This document shows positions 11,959 to 22,803 of a DNA stretch of 32,000 nucleotides, in pieces; position 1 is the first letter of the stretch, and every line of letters starts with the position of its first letter. A model generated the notes under the pieces. It was not told the origin of the DNA. It saw only the letters and a list, made by a program, of their open reading frames with translations, and searched no databases. This stretch comes from an uncultured Lentisphaeria bacterium. Lineage in GTDB: Bacteria; Verrucomicrobiota; Lentisphaeria; JABSQK01; JAJFLO01. A program made the position numbers and the translations under genes. The stretch lies in contig OX638337.1 in assembly GCA_951812855.1 (NCBI GenBank), positions 630,001 through 662,000 of the forward strand. Direction: 5' to 3'.

Positions 11959-12639
11959 TTAGTGTTGCGATTGGCGGATTAATGTATAGAAACGGTCTTC
12001 GTATTTCTCAAAAACACCAAGTTTTTTTAGTTTATTACCTAAAAAATTTATACGTGTTCTATCGGTAGAAGCTGCAATGAATTCAGATTCAATTTCGTCT
12101 TTCATATCCTGATTTGAAGCCAAATTAAACTGAGAAAGTTCATTCAAATTCACTGAAGCAGATTGCTGTAGATAATCAACAAAAAATTTCAATAAGGAAA
12201 CTTCCCAAAACTCGTCGGCACCAACAATGATTGCAGACATGTTATCTTCTTTATTTAATACCTTATCTTTTACTCGTTTTGAAACATCATCTATAGTTCC
12301 GGAAAGTAATTCTTCTGAAATTTTCTCTTTGCGAAAATGTAATCCAAACTTCAATATTTTGATCATTTCACCATTATCCATAAGCCATTCGGCATATTCA
12401 CGTGCTTTATCCCCAAATCCTTCTAACAACTGTGATGCAAAATGAGACGGCGTAATGATTTGCGGTCTTTCTGAACACATACTTCCGGCTCTCAATCTAA
12501 CTTTATTCACTTCATCCATCAGTTCACTTAACAAATGGTAACGAATTGTTGTCCTGCCAAATGTTTCGAGTGACTGTTTGGGTGCATGAACCACTTTTGT
12601 AACATTCACTGCGTACCAGATATCCTCTTGCTTACCCAT
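11959..12639 (-). CDS. Hypothetical protein
   Basis: A 226-aa ORF of non-repetitive composition. I recognise no motif. Confidence 0.55.
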   Translation of the reverse strand: MGKQEDIWYAVNVTKVVHAPKQSLETFGRTTIRYHLLSELMDEVNKVRLRAGSMCSERPQIITPSHFASQLLEGFGDKAREYAEWLMDNGEMIKILKFGLHFRKEKISEELLSGTIDDVSKRVKDKVLNKEDNMSAIIVGADEFWEVSLLKFFVDYLQQSASVNLNELSQFNLASNQDMKDEIESEFIAASTDRTRINFLGNKLKKLGVFEKYEDRFYTLIRQSQH

Positions 12640-13759: not shown

Positions 13760-14077
13760 TTGATTTTGATATATTTCAAATACGATGAAAAAAGAGAGCG
13801 ATTTGAAACTGGAGAATTAGACCTGGGCTTACATCAGCGAAAATTCAAGACTGGTACAGTCATTAAAATGTATTCTTATGATCTTCCGTCAGGATCACGT
13901 TCAGTAATTTCCCGTGTTCTTAACCAAAGTATTGATGAATATTTATTCAATCCGGCACTGCCAATCTTAACTGTTGATAAACCAGAACGCTATCCAGGCG
14001 AGAAGATGTTCAAAGCTGGATCGAAAGTCAGAAAACAGATAGTGGTAAGAACGGGCAGAGAGGATGATTTTCATTGA
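13760..14077 (+). CDS. Hypothetical ORF abutting the island (possibly a junction artefact)
   Basis: 105 aa with a TTG start and host-like AT-rich composition. Its TGA stop overlaps the TTG start of the methyltransferase (TTGA at 14074-14077). No motif was recognised. Confidence 0.3.
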   Translation: MILIYFKYDEKRERFETGELDLGLHQRKFKTGTVIKMYSYDLPSGSRSVISRVLNQSIDEYLFNPALPILTVDKPERYPGEKMFKAGSKVRKQIVVRTGREDDFH

Positions 14078-16824
14078 ACACCGTTGAAATAGAAGAAGCG
14101 ATATCCGCGTTAGCGGCAGAGCCGTTCGACGCGGCGGAATTCCCCTATGCGTTTCTGGAAGCGTTTGACAATAAGGCCACCACCATCAAGCGGTTGCGGT
14201 ACGGCAATGCCAACAAATCGGATATCGATGGCGGGGTTTTACAGCGCAACAACATCCATTTGGCTGTATGCAAGCAGGATAAAGTCTCCGACACCCTGGT
14301 GTTGCTCAAAGACAGTCCGGCCACAATAAAAGGCAAGACAAAATTCATACTGGCAACAGACGGCATTGATTTTGAAGCAGAAGACATAACCTCTGGTGAC
14401 ACCCTTGCTTGTAAATACAGTGATTTTCCCGACCGCTTTGGTTTTTTCCTTCCTCTTGCAGGCATTAGCACGGTCAGGCAAATCCGTGAGAACTCTGTTG
14501 ATATTCGAGCTGCCAGCCGCTTAAACAAATTGTATGTCGAGTTGCTAAGGAATAACCCTGATTGGGGTACCTCCGAACACCGCCATGATATGAACCACTT
14601 TATGGCCCGGCTAATTTTCTGTTTCTTCGCTGAAGATACCGACATATTCAACGGCGATAATTTGTTTACCGCAACCATCGAACAAATGAGTGCAAAAGAT
14701 TCGTCGAATACCCATGAGGTAATCGGTGAAATCTTTCGATCGATGAACGTTAAAATCACTGATCGAAAGAAAAAAGTATTGCGTTCATGGGCGAATGGTT
14801 TTCCCTACGTAAATGGCGGGCTTTTTTCAGCAGATACAGAAATACCGGAATTTACCAGAATTGCACGTTCCTATCTCTTACACGTTGGAAGGCTGGATTG
14901 GCAAAAAATCAACCCCGATATTTTCGGTTCGATGATACAGGCGGTGGCAGACGATGAAGAACGCGGCAGTCTCGGCATGCACTACACCAGCGTTCCCAAT
15001 ATTTTAAAGGTTCTCAATCCACTGTTTTTGGATGATCTTCATCGTCAACTGAAGCAGGCAGGAAATAACGCCAGAAAATTATTAAACCTGCGGCGGCGGA
15101 TATCGACTATTCGTGTATTTGATCCCGCCTGTGGGTCGGGTAATTTTCTTGTCATTGCGTATAAAAAACTGCGTGAAATCGAAGCTGAAATAAATGATCG
15201 GCGCGGTGAAAAAGGTCGGTCAACGGATATTCCGCTTACCAACTTCAGGGGCATTGAGCTGCGGGATTTTCCCGCCGAGATTGCACGGCTGGCGTTGATT
15301 ATAGCGCAGTACCAATGCGACTTGCGATATCTCGGTCAGAAATTAGCACTGGCTGAATTCTTGCCGTTAGACAGGGAAAATTGGATTACTTCAGGCAATG
15401 CTCTGGAAATCGATTGGCTTTCTATTTGTCCATCTACTGGAACGTCAGTAAAAATGATGGGTGATGACTTATTTAATAAACCAGTCGATCAGGCAGAGGT
15501 AGAATTTGAAAACAAAGGCGGTGAAACCTATATCTGTGGTAACCCTCCTTACCTGGGAAGTACATGGCAGTCTAAAGAGCAAAAAGCCGATTTAAAACAT
15601 ATTTTCGACGGTAAAACTAAAAACTGGAAATCGCTGGATTATGTTTCCGGCTGGTTCATGAAGGCAGCAGAGTATGGGCGTCAAACAAACGCTGTAAGTG
15701 CGTTTGTTGCGACAAATTCTATATGTCAGGGACAACACGTACCGATTTTGTGGCCGCTCATTTTCAGCACCGGTCATAAAATCGACTTCGCCCACACCTC
15801 CTTCAAATGGGCAAACCTCGCCAGCCACAATGCCGGCGTGACGGTGGCAATTATTGGGATTTCCAACAGACCCCGGAAGTACCGAAGCCTTTACTCAATC
15901 TCAGAGGAAGGAAATCCGATAGAAAAAAGAACCGGGAATATCAATGCTTACCTGATTTCAGGTGCAAATGTCATTGTTGAGAAGTCATCCAGACCTGTAT
16001 GCGAATTATCTGAAATGAAATTTGGCAACAAGCCTGTTGATGGCGGCAACCTCCTTTTGTCGAAGGCGGAGGTTTCTGAACTGGGTCTGTCTAAAAAACA
16101 ACATCGTAAATTTATCCGTCGCATAGTTGGCTCTGCGGAATTTATAAAAGGCCTGCAACGTTATTGCCTTTGGATCGAGGATCAACATTTAGATGAGGCA
16201 ATGGCTATAGAGCCGATTCAAAAACGCATAGAGGCTGTTCGAGAAAAACGCCTGGCCAGCCGAGATAAAAGTGCGAACGATATGGCGAAGCGTTCCCACC
16301 AGATGCGTGAGATGAATATTGGGAAAAGCCATTCTATCGTCGTTCCGCGTGTCAGCTCGGAAAACCGCGATTATCTGCCCTGCGGCCTGCTTCCGTCGGG
16401 AACAATCGTTTCGGACAGCTGTTTTGCACTCTATGACGCACCGCTCTGGAACATGGCAATAATAGCCTCCCGCCTGCATCTGGTTTGGATTGGTACGGTA
16501 TGCGGCAGGCTTGGAACCGGCTATAGGTATTCCAACACGCTTGGCTGGAACACTTTTCCAATCCCAAAATTGACTGAAAAGAACAAAGAAGATTTAGAAC
16601 GCTGCGCCGAGGATATACTCCTGGCACGGGAAGCACATTTTCCCGCCACCATCGCCGATCTCTATAAACCGGAAAAAATGCCGGAAAACCTCCGCCGCAA
16701 CCATGAGCAAAATGATGAAGTGTTAGAACGCATCTATATCGGCCGCCGCTTCCGCAACGACACCGAACGCCTCGAAAAGCTCTTCGAACTCTACACCCGT
16801 ATGACGAAGAAGGGGGCGGCATGA
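14074..16824 (+). CDS. MmeI/PglX-like gamma-class N6-adenine DNA methyltransferase with a C-terminal TRD
   Basis: 916 aa. Motif I is VFDPACGSGNFLV (15121-15147). Motif IV is GNPPYLG (NPPY at 15541-15552). Blocks I recall from the MmeI family: LIFCFFAEDTDIF, FPYVNGGLF, LDWQKINPDIFGSMIQ, GMHYTSVPNILKVLNPLFLDDL, KFGNKPVDGGNLLL, RYCLWI, VPRVSSENRDYLP, GRLGTGYRYSNTLGWNTFP, LYKPEKMPENLRRNHEQND. The start is TTG, with GAGAGGA 9-10 nt upstream. Confidence 0.9.
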   Translation: MNTVEIEEAISALAAEPFDAAEFPYAFLEAFDNKATTIKRLRYGNANKSDIDGGVLQRNNIHLAVCKQDKVSDTLVLLKDSPATIKGKTKFILATDGIDFEAEDITSGDTLACKYSDFPDRFGFFLPLAGISTVRQIRENSVDIRAASRLNKLYVELLRNNPDWGTSEHRHDMNHFMARLIFCFFAEDTDIFNGDNLFTATIEQMSAKDSSNTHEVIGEIFRSMNVKITDRKKKVLRSWANGFPYVNGGLFSADTEIPEFTRIARSYLLHVGRLDWQKINPDIFGSMIQAVADDEERGSLGMHYTSVPNILKVLNPLFLDDLHRQLKQAGNNARKLLNLRRRISTIRVFDPACGSGNFLVIAYKKLREIEAEINDRRGEKGRSTDIPLTNFRGIELRDFPAEIARLALIIAQYQCDLRYLGQKLALAEFLPLDRENWITSGNALEIDWLSICPSTGTSVKMMGDDLFNKPVDQAEVEFENKGGETYICGNPPYLGSTWQSKEQKADLKHIFDGKTKNWKSLDYVSGWFMKAAEYGRQTNAVSAFVATNSICQGQHVPILWPLIFSTGHKIDFAHTSFKWANLASHNAGVTVAIIGISNRPRKYRSLYSISEEGNPIEKRTGNINAYLISGANVIVEKSSRPVCELSEMKFGNKPVDGGNLLLSKAEVSELGLSKKQHRKFIRRIVGSAEFIKGLQRYCLWIEDQHLDEAMAIEPIQKRIEAVREKRLASRDKSANDMAKRSHQMREMNIGKSHSIVVPRVSSENRDYLPCGLLPSGTIVSDSCFALYDAPLWNMAIIASRLHLVWIGTVCGRLGTGYRYSNTLGWNTFPIPKLTEKNKEDLERCAEDILLAREAHFPATIADLYKPEKMPENLRRNHEQNDEVLERIYIGRRFRNDTERLEKLFELYTRMTKKGAA

Positions 16825-17225
16825 GCCAGTTCGCACCCATCCCCTATGCCGCGCTCAATTCGCGCCAGAAGGAAAACTACAACTTCCACAAGGTCGCTGC
16901 GCGTATGGCCGATTACGGCTTCAACTGCCTGCGGCTGACCGACGACTGGCAGGGGGCGGATTTCATCGCCTGCCACATCGACGGCGAGACCTTTCTGAAG
17001 GTGCAGCTCAAGGGGCGTCTGGTCATCAACCGCAAGTATCAGGGGAAGGGTATCCACGTCGCCTTCATCGATCGGGAGCGGGTGTTTGTCTATCCGCATG
17101 ATGAGATGGTCAGGCAAGCTGAAGGGCACATCAACAACACCGCGTCGTGGCGTGATCGCGGTGCTTATACGTGGCCATCAACGCCCGCCTGGGCAATCAA
17201 TTTTTTAGAAAAGTTCAGGATTTGA
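16821..17225 (+). CDS. Small PD-(D/E)xK-like (YraN/restriction-endonuclease-like) protein, putative
   Basis: 134 aa. Its ATG overlaps the methyltransferase stop (ATGA). The segment GADFIACHIDGETFLKVQLKGR (D47 at 16959-16961, QLK at 17004-17012) mirrors the YraN core GEIDIIARDQAVLCIVEVKTR found in this same window. Q replaces the usual E. Confidence 0.6.
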   Translation: MSQFAPIPYAALNSRQKENYNFHKVAARMADYGFNCLRLTDDWQGADFIACHIDGETFLKVQLKGRLVINRKYQGKGIHVAFIDRERVFVYPHDEMVRQAEGHINNTASWRDRGAYTWPSTPAWAINFLEKFRI

Positions 17226-17227
17226 CC

Positions 17228-19273
17228 ATGACCAATAATATTCCCTCCGTTTCCGTCACCTATGCCCGAAACGGCAGCTCCACCAAATCGAACGAGCTTG
17301 GGATGCGCCCGATGCAGGAGCTTGCGTATGAGAAGCGGGGCGAGCAGTATCTTCTGATAAAGTCTCCTCCCGCTTCTGGTAAAAGCCGTGCACTGATGTT
17401 CATCGCACTCGACAAGCTGCACAATCAAAACGTGGATAAAGTCATTATAGCCGTCCCTGAAAAGTTCATTGGTTTCAGCTTTGCCAATGAGCCGCTCTCT
17501 CAGTATGGCTTTTATTGGGATTGGAAAGTCGAGCCAAAGTGGAATTTGTGTAATGCACCGGGAGAAGATGGCGGCAAAGTAAACTCTGTTAAAGCTTTTC
17601 TCGACAGCGAGGATCGCGTTCTGGTCGCGACCCATGCGACCTTCCGCTTTGCCATGGACAAGTTCGGGATTGAAGCTTTTGATGATTGCCTGATCGCAGT
17701 GGACGAGTTCCATCATGTCAGCACCAACCCGGATAACAAACTCGGCAATCACCTCGGTCAGCTTATTGAACGTGACAAGGTGCATATTGTCGCTATGACG
17801 GGCTCATATTTCCGGGGCGACGCCGAAGCGGTCTTGTCCGCTCAGGACGAAGCTGAATTTGAGACGGTAATATATACCTATTACGAACAGCTCAATGGTT
17901 ATGACTGCCTGAAAACCCTGGATATAGGGTATTACTTCTATTCAGGTTCTTATGCAGACAGTATTTTGGATGTTCTGGATGCCACTGAGAAAACCATTAT
18001 TCATATTCCCAATGTCAATTCCAGAGAGAGTACAAAGGATAAACATAAAGAAGTCGAACATATTATTGAAGCACTCGGTTCATGGAAAGGTGTGGATGAG
18101 AATACAGGCTTTCATTTAGTGAAAACCCCCGATGGCACACTGCTTCGTATCGCTGATCTGGTAGACGATGAGCCCGCAAGGCGAGACAAGGTTTCGGCGG
18201 CTGTCAAGATGCCTTCAGAAAAAAATAATAGAGACTATATTGATATCATTATTGCCCTCGGCATGGCCAAAGAAGGCTTTGATTGGATATGGTGTGAGCA
18301 CGTTCTTACAATAGGCTACAGGGCAAGCCTGACTGAAATAATACAAATCATAGGCCGTGCCACTCGCGATGCTAAAGGTAAAACCCACGCCCGTTTTACC
18401 AACCTGATTGCAGAGCCGGATGCCTCTGAAGAAGCTGTAACAGATGCTGTGAATGATACGCTGAAAGCCATTGCTGCTTCCCTGTTGATGGAGCAGGTGC
18501 TCGCTCCGAAGTTCAACTTTACCCCGAAAGTGTCAACCAGCAGCCCCGGGGAAGGGTTTGACTACGGCGAAAATGGTTATGATCCAAGCAGGGAAAATGT
18601 CGGTTTCAATAGCGACACTGGCCAATTCCAAATTGAGATTAAGGGGCTTGTAGAGCCTAAGTCTGAAAATGCACAACGAATTGTCCACGAAGATTTGGAC
18701 GAGGTCATTACCGCCTTTGTTCAGGATAAGACCGCAATAGAACGCGGCCTGTTTGACGATGAGATCGTACCCGAAGAACTGACACAGCTTCGTATGGGTA
18801 AGATCGTCAAAAATAAATATCCTGAGCTTGATGAAGGTGATCAGGAAGCAGTTCGACAATATGCAATAGCCGCTTTTAATCTGACTCAAAAAGCCAAGGA
18901 AGTGGTAAATGATTCGGCAGAGTGTCAAGCTGCAGGCAATACAGCACTGATCGACGGCATTCGCAAATATGCTATGGATGTGCGTGAGCTCGATATCGAT
19001 CTGATAGATCGAATCAATCCGTTTGGAGAAGCCTACGCAATCCTTTCAAAGGCTATGAGTAAAGAAAGCCTGAAACAGGTTGCCGCCGTTATTTCTGCTA
19101 AACGAGTAAATCTTACGCCTGAAGACGCAAGGGATTTAGCCAAACGAGCGCTGAAGTTTAAGATTGAGCGCAAACGTTTGCCTGATATTAATTCTCAAGA
19201 CCCATGGGAAAAAAGAATGGCCGAAGGGGTTGCTTACTTAGCCAGAATGAAGGCGGAGGCATCTAATGGTTAA
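17228..19273 (+). CDS. SF2 DEAD/DEAH-box (ResIII-like) helicase/translocase with a long C-terminal extension
   Basis: 681 aa from the ATG at 17228, with AGGA 8 nt upstream. The track's 17171 start would overlap the previous ORF. Motif I is SPPASGKS (GKS at 17378-17386). Motif II is DEFH (17702-17713). Motif III is MTGS. Motif VI is QIIGRATR (18344-18367). Confidence 0.9.
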   Translation: MTNNIPSVSVTYARNGSSTKSNELGMRPMQELAYEKRGEQYLLIKSPPASGKSRALMFIALDKLHNQNVDKVIIAVPEKFIGFSFANEPLSQYGFYWDWKVEPKWNLCNAPGEDGGKVNSVKAFLDSEDRVLVATHATFRFAMDKFGIEAFDDCLIAVDEFHHVSTNPDNKLGNHLGQLIERDKVHIVAMTGSYFRGDAEAVLSAQDEAEFETVIYTYYEQLNGYDCLKTLDIGYYFYSGSYADSILDVLDATEKTIIHIPNVNSRESTKDKHKEVEHIIEALGSWKGVDENTGFHLVKTPDGTLLRIADLVDDEPARRDKVSAAVKMPSEKNNRDYIDIIIALGMAKEGFDWIWCEHVLTIGYRASLTEIIQIIGRATRDAKGKTHARFTNLIAEPDASEEAVTDAVNDTLKAIAASLLMEQVLAPKFNFTPKVSTSSPGEGFDYGENGYDPSRENVGFNSDTGQFQIEIKGLVEPKSENAQRIVHEDLDEVITAFVQDKTAIERGLFDDEIVPEELTQLRMGKIVKNKYPELDEGDQEAVRQYAIAAFNLTQKAKEVVNDSAECQAAGNTALIDGIRKYAMDVRELDIDLIDRINPFGEAYAILSKAMSKESLKQVAAVISAKRVNLTPEDARDLAKRALKFKIERKRLPDINSQDPWEKRMAEGVAYLARMKAEASNG

Positions 19274-20480
19274 GTCTACTTTTACGCAAGAAGACGATAA
19301 GCTGTTAGCAGAGCTTGGTGTTGTAGTTGAGAAAAAAAAGAAAGCCGCCATGACTCCACGGCAAGAGCGAATTATTGCAGGCTTTGAAGATATTCAGCAC
19401 TTTGTCGAGGAGTACGACCGGCCACCATTGCACGGTGAAAACAGAGACGTTTTCGAGCGTTTATACGCAACAAGGCTGGATCAAATTCGCACTCAAGACG
19501 AATCTCGTCAGTTAATCAAAGCGTTGGACTATCAAGGATTACTGTCTGATAACCTGAAAATAGCTGAACCTGACGCTGAATATGAAACCGATGACGAGCT
19601 TCTGGCTGCTCTTGGTGTCGAAAGACCAACAAAAGAAGGTGATATTGCCTTTCTTAGGCATGTTAAATCGCAAGCTGAAAGAAAAGCGGCGGAAGAAATA
19701 GCCAGCCGAACCCCTTGTAAAGACTTTGAAAAGTTCAAACCACTTTTCGATAAAGTGCAAAGTGATTTAAAACATGGTCTGGTAGAGGCAAAGTTGCTTG
19801 AAGATCAAAAAGGGCAATCTGTGATGGCCCAGATAAACCAGGGCGACTGGTTTATCGTAAACGGGCAAAAAGCCTACGTTGCAAAATTAAGTGATCGGCG
19901 TATCCATGGTTTTGATAACAACGACTATCGCTTACGGGTCATCTACGATAACGGAACCGAAAGTGACCTGCTGCTGCGGTCGTTGCAAAAAGCACTCTAT
20001 GAAGATGAGGCAGGTAGAAGGATCATCTCACGTTCTGCCGGGCCGCTATTTGATGATGTTGCAGAGGAAGAAGATTTGGCGAGTGGGACAATTTATGTGC
20101 TTAGAAGCAAATCCAATCATCCCGTGATCGAAGAGAATAGAGCGGTGATTCATAAAATCGGAATTACCGGGGGAGACGTAAAAACGAGAGTATCAAACGC
20201 CAAACTTGATCCTACCTATCTTATGGCAGAGGTTGAAATCGTCGCTACTTACGATCTGTTCAATATCAGTCGAGGTAAACTGGAAAATCTACTTCACAGG
20301 TTTTTTGAGAGTGCCAGGCTCGAAATAGAAGTGCCAGATAGATTTGGTAATCCTGTAATCCCACAAGAGTGGTTTCTGGTGCCTCTGCCTGTTATTAATG
20401 AAGTGGTAGAAAAAATCAAAGACGGGAGTATTGCCGGCTATAAATATGACCGTAAAAAGGCAATGCTTGTTAAGGACTAA
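19266..20480 (+). CDS. T5orf172/MUG113 (GIY-YIG superfamily-like) domain protein
   Basis: 404 aa. The C-terminal block, about aa 274-385 (nt 20085-20420), reads GTIYVLRSKSNHP..HKIGITGGDVKTRVSN..KLENLLHRFF..PQEWFLVPL. It matches the T5orf172 pattern as I recall it. The N-terminal half is unassigned and carries a duplicated DDxLLAxLGV motif. Confidence 0.8.
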   Translation: MVKSTFTQEDDKLLAELGVVVEKKKKAAMTPRQERIIAGFEDIQHFVEEYDRPPLHGENRDVFERLYATRLDQIRTQDESRQLIKALDYQGLLSDNLKIAEPDAEYETDDELLAALGVERPTKEGDIAFLRHVKSQAERKAAEEIASRTPCKDFEKFKPLFDKVQSDLKHGLVEAKLLEDQKGQSVMAQINQGDWFIVNGQKAYVAKLSDRRIHGFDNNDYRLRVIYDNGTESDLLLRSLQKALYEDEAGRRIISRSAGPLFDDVAEEEDLASGTIYVLRSKSNHPVIEENRAVIHKIGITGGDVKTRVSNAKLDPTYLMAEVEIVATYDLFNISRGKLENLLHRFFESARLEIEVPDRFGNPVIPQEWFLVPLPVINEVVEKIKDGSIAGYKYDRKKAMLVKD

Positions 20481-20553: not shown

Positions 20554-20817
20554 TTATGTGTGCCAGGTTTCCACTATTTCATCCTCCAACAACGTCCTTA
20601 GATCCTGTAAAATTTCCATTTCCGCTTCCAATTGTTCTTCACTGAACAAACTACATGCTTTACCAAATCCAACTATCGCCGGGACATTAAGAGTTCCGGA
20701 GCGCAGCCCGTTTTCATGCCCGCCTCCATGAATTACAGGTACTAAATCATCCTTAATTTCATTTTTTATACACCCGTTAATCAAATATTCTTCGAGCAGA
20801 TAGGATCTCCCACTCAT
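20554..20817 (-). pseudogene. Cysteine desulfurase (NifS/IscS-family) internal fragment
   Basis: An 87-aa ORF contains [28 protein letters not shown], the conserved HGGGQE-GLRSGT-NV block of class V aminotransferase desulfurases. The N-terminal PLP-binding half and the C-terminal active-site Cys region are both absent. Confidence 0.7.
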
Positions 20818-21060: not shown

Positions 21061-21145
<85 letters not shown>

Positions 21146-21351: not shown

Positions 21352-22803
21352 ATGATAATGCCCCGAAAACCTGTTTCTAAAAAAGGAAGTACTCAAAAAA
21401 TTATGGATGTGCTAATTAACCGGGAAAACGGTTGGCTTAAAGTCAATGAATCAGAACGAAAACGAATTTTTTCATTTTGTGATCACTATCGTAATTTTTT
21501 AAGCGATGTCAAAACCGAGCGCCAGGCAAATAGGCGGGGAATCGACTTAGCAGAAAAAAACGGTTTCAAAAATCTAAATTATTTCATTGATCAAAAAAAG
21601 AGACTGTCGCCCGGGGACAAGGTGTATGTTACCATTTCCGATAAAACATTAATATTGGTTGCCATCGGAAAGAACAGCCTTGAATCCGGAATGAGAATCA
21701 TCGGAGGCCATACCGATTCGCCACGACTTGACCTAAAACCAAGACCACTTTATGAAGATGGCGAAATGGGCTTATTAGATACCCACTATTATGGTGGTAT
21801 TAAAAAGTATCAGTGGGTTACCATTCCTCTTGCATTACACGGAGTTGTAAGTAAGAAAAATGGGGATCAAATCTCCATTTCTATTGGGGAAAATTCGAGC
21901 GATCCTGTTTTTAATATAACTGATTTACTACCGCATCTTGGTAAAGATCAGGCGGGAAAAAAACTTAATGAGGGCATCTCAGGCGAAGGATTAAACGTTC
22001 TTTTTGCCAGCATTCCCCAAAAAAATAAAGAAGCAGGCGAAAGGATTAAATTAAACGCAATGGAACTGCTTTATCAAACCTACGGTATTGTGGAGGATGA
22101 CCTGGTCAGTGCTGAATTAGAACTGGTTCCTGCCGGTCCGGCTCGTGATTCGGGAATCGACAGGTCAATGATCCTGGGATATGGTCAGGATGATCGTGTA
22201 TCGGTTTATACCGGATTACAGGCGTTGCTTCATCAGAAAAAGATTCCTGCTGCAACAAGTGTATGCATTCTCACCGACAAAGAGGAAATCGGATCAGTAG
22301 GTTCAACCGGTATGTATAGCTTTTTATTCGAAAACGTTATGGCAGAAATCATTAACCTGACAACCAGAGATTATTCAGATTTAATATTGCGACGCTGCTT
22401 AAAAAATTCAAAAATGCTGTCCGCAGATGTTAATGCACTTCATGATCCGAATTATCCTGAAGTCAGTTCACCCAACAATAATATGGCAAAACTAAACCAC
22501 GGATTGATTTTAACAAAATATGTTGGTGCAAGAGGGAAAAGTGGATCAAATGATGCCCATGCTGAATACCTTGCTGAACTTCGTAAAATTTTCGACGATG
22601 CAAACGTCATTTGGCAAACCGGAGAAATCGGCAAAGTCGATCAGGGCGGCGGCGGTACGATTGCATTCATGATGGCACGATATGAAATGGACGTGGTCGA
22701 CTGCGGAATAGGACTGTTAAGCATGCATGCACCCTGGGAAATTTCCGGAAAACTGGATATCTATATGGCTTATAAAGGATACAAAGCCTTTTATGATTCA
22801 TGA
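21352..22803 (+). CDS. M18-family aminopeptidase
   Basis: 483 aa. Blocks seen: IIGGHTDSPRLDLKP, HYYGGIKKYQW, DDRVSVY and SMHAPWE. The start could be 21352 or 21358. Confidence 0.88.
   Translation: MIMPRKPVSKKGSTQKIMDVLINRENGWLKVNESERKRIFSFCDHYRNFLSDVKTERQANRRGIDLAEKNGFKNLNYFIDQKKRLSPGDKVYVTISDKTLILVAIGKNSLESGMRIIGGHTDSPRLDLKPRPLYEDGEMGLLDTHYYGGIKKYQWVTIPLALHGVVSKKNGDQISISIGENSSDPVFNITDLLPHLGKDQAGKKLNEGISGEGLNVLFASIPQKNKEAGERIKLNAMELLYQTYGIVEDDLVSAELELVPAGPARDSGIDRSMILGYGQDDRVSVYTGLQALLHQKKIPAATSVCILTDKEEIGSVGSTGMYSFLFENVMAEIINLTTRDYSDLILRRCLKNSKMLSADVNALHDPNYPEVSSPNNNMAKLNHGLILTKYVGARGKSGSNDAHAEYLAELRKIFDDANVIWQTGEIGKVDQGGGGTIAFMMARYEMDVVDCGIGLLSMHAPWEISGKLDIYMAYKGYKAFYDS

Follow-up and report, generated by a model that had tools for sequence, protein, structure and literature searches.

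A stretch of 32,000 nucleotides from an uncultured Lentisphaeria bacterium (GenBank assembly GCA_951812855.1, contig OX638337.1, positions 630,001 to 662,000; hereafter the window) carries, at positions 14074-20480, a block of four tightly packed open reading frames (ORFs) on the same strand. The first (14074..16824, +) encodes a 916-amino acid (aa) MmeI-like gamma-class N6-adenine methyltransferase (MTase) that starts with TTG and resembles YeeA, now called DnmA. It is followed by an ORF for a 134-aa protein with a predicted PD-(D/E)xK fold (16821..17225, +), a gene for a 681-aa YeeB-like superfamily 2 (SF2) helicase or translocase (17228..19273, +) and a gene for a 404-aa YeeC-like protein of the T5orf172/GIY-YIG type (19266..20480, +). 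An ATGA overlap joins the MTase gene to the 134-aa ORF, a gap of 2 nucleotides (nt) separates the latter from the helicase gene, and the helicase and T5orf172 genes overlap by 8 nt; the ORF coordinates thus agree with the positions and junctions given in an earlier, sequence-only reading of this DNA. The same reading had described the block as GC-rich and compositionally foreign, and this is confirmed by its G + C content of 0.469, compared to 0.375 for the remaining window, with a peak of 42 G or C in 60 nt. The 134-aa ORF stands at 0.565 (0.75 at third codon positions), the MTase and helicase genes at 0.47 each, and the T5orf172 gene at 0.44. All four ORFs are intact and keep their catalytic motifs, and promoter and terminator scans returned nothing beyond shuffled controls. 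We consider it probable that this block is a horizontally acquired, mosaic operon of the YeeA(DnmA)-YeeB-YeeC type, that is, a split, ATP-dependent restriction-modification-like defence system, to which the 134-aa protein is an optional accessory.

The MTase contains all five MmeI domains of Pfam, with MmeI_N at 116 bits, and is matched over its full length by the PADLOC model REase_MTase_IIG (978 bits). Its residues 90-912 align to residues 109-904 of MmeI (PDB 5HR4; phmmer, E 7e-143), while its first ~90 aa do not. As in MmeI and other Type IIL/IIG enzymes, a helical spacer (aa 171-251), a gamma-class MTase domain (aa 327-607), a target recognition domain (TRD; aa 630-833, positions 15961-16572) and a C-domain (aa 835-912) follow one another from residue ~90 on. 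Motif I (FDPACGSGNF, aa 349-358), the NPPY motif (aa 490-493, positions 15541-15552) and the fused TRD are all intact, and the TTG start is kept in relatives. Like MmeI, this enzyme probably modifies a single strand.

The N-domain (aa 1-159, positions 14074-14550) sets the protein apart. A previous study of MmeI homologues distinguished two groups, one of which carries a PD-ExK motif; the second has no such motif and diverges over roughly the first 100 residues (Morgan et al. 2009, PMC2731913). When the N-terminal 180 aa of the MTase were aligned among 19 syntenic homologues, D50 proved invariant, and no invariant E or K was found between D50 and D96. Alignment with the N-terminus of MmeI by hhalign pairs D50 with D70, A64 with E80, and C66 with K82, and the ExK half of D-X9-ExK is gone; the numbering of the MmeI sequence used here agrees with the phmmer alignment from residue 109 onward. 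A PDB search with a profile of the same 180 aa did not retrieve MmeI. The N-domain is therefore best described as kept, but predicted to be catalytically dead as a PD-ExK nuclease. An earlier description of the MTase as nuclease-less was right in substance, in that ExK is absent; nonetheless, an MmeI_N domain is still present. It follows that cleavage, which in MmeI resides in the same chain, would presumably be left to separate proteins and be ATP-dependent. Moreover, the MTase has conserved partner genes, both in 54 of 80 loci sampled and in every three-gene relative examined, whereas MmeI has none. That the protein is an ordinary single-chain Type IIG/IIL enzyme of the MmeI type, with neighbours that are unrelated to it, appears very improbable. 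The full-length REase_MTase_IIG match and the MmeI_N match favor such an enzyme, but the subfamily has not kept the ExK residues, the helicase and T5orf172 genes accompany the MTase gene in synteny at those 54 loci and co-evolve with its N-domain, and neither YeeA nor a second-group homologue from Moraxella showed endonuclease activity when expressed (PMC2731913).

The various parts of the operon differ in how they vary. The TRD is hypervariable, with a mean p-distance of 0.57 versus ~0.30 for the rest of the MTase, as expected for a specificity module that is presumably under diversifying exchange. Pairwise distances were compared over 46 complete four-gene loci (L001, L006-L085). Those of the N-domain correlate with distances of the helicase (r 0.69) and of the T5orf172 protein (r 0.66), and less so with those of its own MTase core (r 0.42) and its own TRD (r 0.16), while the helicase and the T5orf172 protein correlate with each other at r 0.86. 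Co-variation of the N-domain with the helicase and the T5orf172 protein would fit a docking role, but segmental recombination could also produce such a pattern.

The helicase was taken to start at the ATG at 17228; the mechanical ORF list begins upstream, at a GTG at 17171. Pfam gives it weak matches to DEAD, ResIII and Helicase_C, and PADLOC just weak Cas3-like matches. A complete set of SF2 motifs is nonetheless present, which bears out the first assignment of this ORF to the SF2 helicases: motif I (PPASGKS, aa 47-53, positions 17366-17386), motif II (DEFHH, aa 159-163, positions 17702-17716), TGS (aa 191-193) and QIIGRxTRD (aa 373-381), all of which are invariant among homologues of 43-80% identity. 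The C-terminal ~250 aa are helical. The YeeC-like protein consists of a helical N-terminal region, a middle domain resembling a beta-barrel, and a C-terminal T5orf172 domain (aa 274-384, positions 20085-20417), for which both T5orf172 (44 bits) and MUG113 (55 bits) of Pfam score over cut-off. Its invariant residues, G274, I276, Y277, K297, I298, G299, R308, E340 and E368-W-F, are GIY-YIG-like, in keeping with the T5orf172/GIY-YIG-like call made earlier for this putative nuclease. At least 7999 homologues were found at E <= 1e-5, and the NCBI name for homologues is "GIY-YIG nuclease family protein". A single-sequence PDB search found nothing. The AlphaFold2 model is of moderate confidence (predicted local distance difference test, pLDDT, 68.5); the order of secondary structures in aa 274-386 fits the GIY-YIG type, and Foldseek matches it to viral models of T5orf172, GIY-YIG and intron-endonuclease proteins (E 6e-5 to 1e-2). 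PDB matches of the middle beta domain to eIF5A/EF-P-like proteins were insignificant in Foldseek and were set aside.

The sequence-only reading took the block for an undescribed system. This is not so, as the trio of MTase, helicase and T5orf172 protein is YeeA(DnmA)-YeeB-YeeC, a cluster defined by Morgan et al. 2009 (PMC2731913). In that study, the genes next to the second group of MmeI homologues were described as "invariably" those for a DEAD helicase resembling YeeB and for a protein resembling YeeC that has GIY-YIG motifs. It was proposed that the MmeI-like subunit provides specificity and protective methylation of a single strand, and that its altered N-domain recruits the helicase and the nuclease (PMC2731913). 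The mechanistic outline that had been drawn for the window, in which a specificity and methylation subunit works with a separate motor and nuclease, is the same as the one proposed there. Judged by its sequence, the locus is a copy of this cluster, and the 2009 hypothesis was rediscovered. The experimental follow-up includes Makarova 2011, Nye 2020 (PMC7261158), a 2023 mBio paper (PMC9973331) and a Vibrio crassostreae study (bioRxiv 10.1101/2021.05.05.442762). DnmA of Bacillus subtilis (formerly YeeA) was shown to make N6-methyladenine at GACGAG, and transformation was not restricted (Nye et al. 2020, PMC7261158). The mBio study reported that dnmA-yeeB-yeeC synteny is conserved, that the cluster gives no phage protection in B. 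subtilis, and that, in some bacteria, an "uncharacterized protein family" nearby might belong to it as well (PMC9973331). In V. crassostreae 7F1_18, yeeAB gives resistance to one phage group (bioRxiv 10.1101/2021.05.05.442762). No newer name or mechanism for the YeeABC system was found in the literature.

The distribution of relatives agrees with this identity. On plasmids of Klebsiella (pVA684), Pantoea, Vibrio (pSEA1) and Niallia, the helicase homologue carries the annotation DEAD/DEAH box helicase and has a "DNA methyltransferase" on one side and a "GIY-YIG nuclease family protein" on the other; in all, helicase homologues were found on 266 plasmid records, which fall into two identity bands. 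The same order of MTase, helicase and GIY-YIG genes is seen in Aurantivibrio, Microbulbifer and Teredinibacter. Compared over full length with such three-gene relatives, the MTase is 34-66% identical, the helicase 43-80% and the T5orf172 protein 29-75%. The nearest YeeC-like relatives (75% identity) belong to marine Gammaproteobacteria, where the operon reads HTH_17 regulator, MTase, helicase, T5orf172. The trio is conserved across Proteobacteria, Bacillota and plasmids, and relatives stand in mobile or defence contexts with McrBC, ArdA, relaxases, integrases and Tn7 genes. The window thus shares with YeeABC an MmeI-like MTase-TRD protein without PD-ExK, an SF2 helicase of the DEAD type and a T5orf172/GIY-YIG protein, tightly coupled on one strand and with no second MTase (none was found in the gene list for 10 kb on either side of the cluster), as well as the nature of a mobile cluster found in defence islands. 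It differs in the extra 134-aa gene between the MTase and helicase genes, which is absent from the plasmid and gammaproteobacterial relatives examined, and in the full length of its helicase (681 aa) and YeeC-like protein (404 aa), whereas B. subtilis YeeB and YeeC were reported to lack C-terminal stretches (PMC9973331). What is modestly new is an uncharacterized PD-(D/E)xK family as an optional fourth gene, a cargo slot at a gene junction, and a dead N-domain that co-varies with its presumed partners.

The 134-aa ORF has no model match in Pfam, PADLOC, NCBIfam or PHROG, and a single-sequence PDB search found nothing. It nonetheless belongs to a sizable family, with 2796 homologues (58-76% identity among the matches listed), 951 representatives at 50% identity, and a presence in 430 of ~185,000 species genomes. 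Twenty-five columns are invariant, among them D41, D42, D47, H52, Q62, K64 and R66, and E18 is invariant alongside D47 and K64. The AlphaFold2 model (pLDDT 93.2) is matched best, in a Foldseek search of the PDB, by Holliday junction resolvases of the Hjc type, the homing endonuclease I-Ssp6803I, and the nuclease domains of SPARDA and DrdV, all of them PD-(D/E)xK nucleases, with probability 1.00, E down to 3e-4 and template-modelling (TM) scores of 0.4-0.5; identity to Hjc and I-Ssp6803I is 16-21%. The core has the order alpha-beta-beta-beta-alpha-beta. From this model, the protein is predicted with high confidence to fold as an Hjc-like PD-(D/E)xK nuclease, and the initial view of the ORF as a mini PD-(D/E)xK-like protein is borne out as to fold. 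With Hjc and I-Ssp6803I it shares the minimal fold, a similar size, the Glu of helix 1, the Asp of strand 2 and the xK of strand 3. The candidate catalytic residues are E18, D47 (positions 16959-16961) and Q62-L-K64 (positions 17004-17012). E18, D47 and K64 stand where catalytic residues are usually found, but in place of the middle acidic residue, the third in Hjc and I-Ssp6803I, there is an invariant Gln (Q62), giving QxK, and the invariant D41, D42, H52 and R66 are without assignable counterparts in those two proteins. QxK variants are active in HinP1I.

Some members of the 134-aa family are tandem duplications with a degenerate first copy, forming a pseudo-dimer, and others are fused to Nmad3 (nucleotide-modification-associated) or to ankyrin repeats (P0245, P0246, P0253, P0291, P0254). 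The tandem duplications suggest that the 134-aa protein acts as a dimer. A phage origin or a homing-endonuclease lifestyle was also considered for this ORF and dropped, because only 4 of 2.9 million viral contigs carry the gene, one of them within a full operon.

The place of the 134-aa gene in the system was judged from the best 80 species-level loci, reached via the 134-aa ORF alone. The genes for the MTase, the 134-aa protein, the helicase and the T5orf172 protein were all present, in the same order, at 54 of these; 10 were partial or ended by a contig edge, and at the other 16, the 134-aa gene stood alone, none of its three partners being present although 3.5 kb or more was available on either side. 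Co-occurrence of the four genes is far beyond chance. Thus, synteny of the four genes across many genomes is established, but they are not an obligate set, as the 134-aa gene is missing from most YeeABC clusters and also occurs alone. No neighbour recurred beside the orphan copies, which are surrounded by ordinary genes of metabolism (L013, L019, L026, L073, L077, L097, L098 and others), and their neighbours include a CsoR/multicopper oxidase pair upstream in Chromobacterium, an overlapping GNAT acetyltransferase gene in L097, and DsbA. The gene is also absent from close three-gene relatives in Klebsiella, Microbulbifer and Teredinibacter, whose helicases are 73-80% identical to that of the window, and it is found on 9 plasmid records versus 266 for the helicase. 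In other relatives, the junction between the MTase and helicase genes holds PDDEXK_4, RhuM, ParE toxin, Schlafen/AlbA_2+HATPase_c_4 or the PADLOC candidates PDC-S67 and PDC-S11 (L002, L003, L016, L040, L048 and others), or one of two more unknown families, of 253 aa (8 loci) and 273 aa (3 species). On the strength of the orphan copies, the three-gene relatives, the rarity on plasmids and the other cargo in the same junction, we read the 134-aa gene as an optional accessory in an MTase-helicase cargo slot, not as a core part. The most likely role for its product is that of a small dimeric nuclease, either auxiliary or independent.

Several observations weigh on the other side and would fit a true subunit as well. 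The position of the 134-aa gene is fixed at the 54 loci, with gaps of 6 nt to the helicase gene in most and of 0-20 nt to the MTase gene in about half, and its distances correlate moderately with those of the helicase (r 0.52) and of the MmeI N-domain (r 0.55), as might be seen in a sub-lineage where the protein had become a subunit. One may therefore suppose that in the four-gene sub-lineage the 134-aa protein is an integral subunit, a second nuclease that would enable the complex, jointly with the GIY-YIG protein, to cleave both strands, such that the operon would be a fully split counterpart of Type ISP enzymes, with nuclease, motor, MTase and TRD. The strong conservation of the protein (55-76% identity and 25 invariant columns) and the resemblance of its fold to nuclease domains, among them the one in DrdV, a relative of MmeI, are in line with this supposition. 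On the contrary, close relatives are three-gene units, plasmids that carry the helicase gene seldom carry this one, at least 16 orphan copies sit in unrelated contexts, other cargo genes may split the 134-aa gene from either neighbour, and its G + C content is unlike that of the rest of the operon. We regard an integral subunit as possible but doubtful. Slightly less probable still is the stronger joint claim that the protein stands for a whole family, as yet undescribed, of minimal dimeric PD-(D/E)xK nucleases of the QxK kind, with ~950 clusters at 50% identity, and that in several hundred species, most of them alphaproteobacterial, it also belongs to YeeABC as a genuine additional subunit, which would dock beside the dead MmeI N-domain and replace the lost cis nuclease. 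If it were a YeeABC subunit, then, with the GIY-YIG subunit, two different nuclease chemistries would be united in one complex, and the operon would represent a natural, fully disassembled machine of the Type ISP kind.

The likeness to Type ISP enzymes such as LlaGI and LlaBIII lies in the list of functions, namely, a PD-(D/E)xK nuclease, an SF2 motor, a gamma-class MTase and a TRD. Type ISP enzymes modify an asymmetric site on one strand. They are, however, single polypeptides, whereas in the window each of the four ORFs starts and stops on its own, and there is a GIY-YIG-type protein in addition; PDB sequence searches with the MTase and the helicase found no Type ISP chain among the matches. 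Type I systems are similar in being made of several subunits, in having a methylase and specificity module that directs a separate motor-nuclease, and in an operon that tolerates cargo such as RhuM. The window differs from them in the lack of HsdS, the TRD being fused to the MTase and the predicted site contiguous, and in its motor and nuclease, which are encoded by separate genes, the nuclease being of the GIY-YIG type instead of the PD-(D/E)xK domain of HsdR. PglX of BREX and DrmMI of DISARM have a distantly related MTase core, and the corresponding PADLOC and NCBIfam matches are weak; the NCBIfam models of BREX PglX score 24-28 bits against cut-offs of 400-900. No genes for PglZ, BrxC, BrxL or DrmA/B/C were found at the locus by PADLOC, NCBIfam or the gene list, and Type I partners were likewise missing from all three, as had been noted at the outset. 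Assignments to BREX, DISARM, MADS, Type I and Type III were each considered and rejected, on account of absent partner genes and sub-threshold scores.

Under the reading that we prefer, a YeeABC-type defence operon, the MmeI-like subunit would read an asymmetric site and methylate one adenine on one strand, thereby protecting the host, as suggested by the 2009 proposal of Morgan et al. and by the example of Type I and Type ISP enzymes. At unmethylated sites, the degenerate N-domain of the MTase would dock the helicase, which may then translocate on DNA, driven by ATP, and the GIY-YIG-type subunit would cut the DNA. An intact SF2 helicase and T5orf172/GIY-YIG-type protein, both translationally coupled, are encoded downstream of the MTase. 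Signs of a defence role are the hypervariable TRD, co-variation of the N-domain, helicase and T5orf172 protein, and the mobile or defence contexts of relatives. Against this reading stand a number of points. Translocase behaviour of the helicase is inferred from its motifs alone, and PDB sequence and profile searches found no close solved relative. For the YeeC-like protein, Foldseek found no GIY-YIG structure in the PDB at E<1e-3 with the model of moderate confidence. We know of no biochemistry for any YeeB or YeeC protein. Lastly, the B. subtilis cluster restricts neither plasmids nor phages (PMC7261158, PMC9973331).

This last point is also what argues for an alternative in which the operon is a non-functional relic and only the MTase matters, as an orphan epigenetic regulator of the kind proposed for B. 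subtilis DnmA. In that organism, deletion of dnmA, yeeB or yeeC leaves phage sensitivity and transformation unchanged, and phages show no depletion of the DnmA site (PMC7261158, PMC9973331). In the window, however, four intact ORFs retain every catalytic motif, the block is compositionally foreign with signs of recent recombination, and diversification is far quicker in the TRD than elsewhere in the MTase. Moreover, Vibrio homologues do protect against phage (bioRxiv 10.1101/2021.05.05.442762), and the YeeB and YeeC proteins of B. subtilis are the ones noted to be without C-terminal stretches (PMC9973331). A relic is thus an unlikely explanation for this copy.

The recombination just mentioned is seen when similarity is followed by segment. 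MTase aa 61-240 and T5orf172 aa 121-300 are closest to gammaproteobacterial operons, and MTase aa 481-840 and the 134-aa ORF are closest to alphaproteobacterial ones. A GC-rich patch at 15500-17500, spanning the 3' half of the MTase gene, the 134-aa ORF and the start of the helicase gene, coincides with the switch from gamma- to alphaproteobacterial relatives, which argues that the locus is recombinant. The 134-aa gene probably arrived with a swapped, TRD-containing patch from an operon of alphaproteobacterial type. The M18 aminopeptidase gene that flanks the block (21352-22803) is closest to metagenome-assembled genomes of Lentisphaeria (61-64% identity) and of Elusimicrobia (57-64% for the two groups together). 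Tentatively, and going by such comparisons of sequence, the operon seems to have crossed phyla, from Proteobacteria into a non-proteobacterial host.

Both edges of the acquired DNA bear remnants. In the gammaproteobacterial relatives L090-L092, an intact HTH_17 gene of 60-65 aa ends 7 nt before the MTase gene. The window retains the decayed 3' end of such an AlpA-like regulator gene (13990..14073, +), which reads "...RREDVQSWIESQK" where relatives have "FKKEDIDQWIEEQK" and whose frame is broken by stops; the G + C content rises here. This remnant marks the left edge of the acquired DNA and of recombination. It also bears on a 105-aa ORF with a TTG start (13760-14077), which was considered as a fifth gene and rejected, having no match in Pfam, PADLOC, NCBIfam or PHROGs, no counterpart in any related locus, and host-like G + C content. 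The ORF crosses the decayed 3' end of HTH_17 in another frame, which argues that it is unlikely to be a gene. The overlap noted earlier as the first of the junctions, TTGA at 14074, does exist, but the partner of the MTase gene in it is this 105-aa ORF, which is without support as a gene.

On the right, an internal fragment of ~60 aa from a cysteine desulfurase of the IscS/NifS/DndA kind (20554..20817, -) gives NCBIfam matches far below the cut-offs (54 bits to DndA, 43-49 bits to IscS/NifS) that cover model positions ~216-280 only. Both ends of the gene are missing. What is left of it stands where the insertion ends on the right, with the operon on one side and tRNA-Leu(tag) (21061..21145, -; ARAGORN and Rfam), which adjoins the insertion, on the other, and may derive from a previous occupant of the site. 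A repeat scan gave no att-like direct repeats on either side of the block, Rfam returned the tRNA only, and no integrase was found in the gene list around the block. Farther to the left, a 226-aa ORF (11959-12639, -) upstream of a UPF0102/YraN-like gene has no Pfam match.

Clusters of the YeeABC type are very common, yet their mechanism has not been worked out. Across PADLOC, NCBIfam and PHROG, neither the 134-aa ORF, the helicase nor the YeeC-like protein has a match above cut-off, and PADLOC 2.0 recognizes the MTase only, under the misleading label "Type IIG". Experimental results are in conflict, as the cluster protects Vibrio and is silent in Bacillus. As an intact copy that was transferred recently, this operon is reasonably well suited to reconstitution, and the optional nuclease and the cargo slot offer handles on how a nuclease-dead N-domain recruits its partners and on whether accessory nucleases alter the outcome. 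The locus fills a known gap and leaves the current understanding of this family in place.

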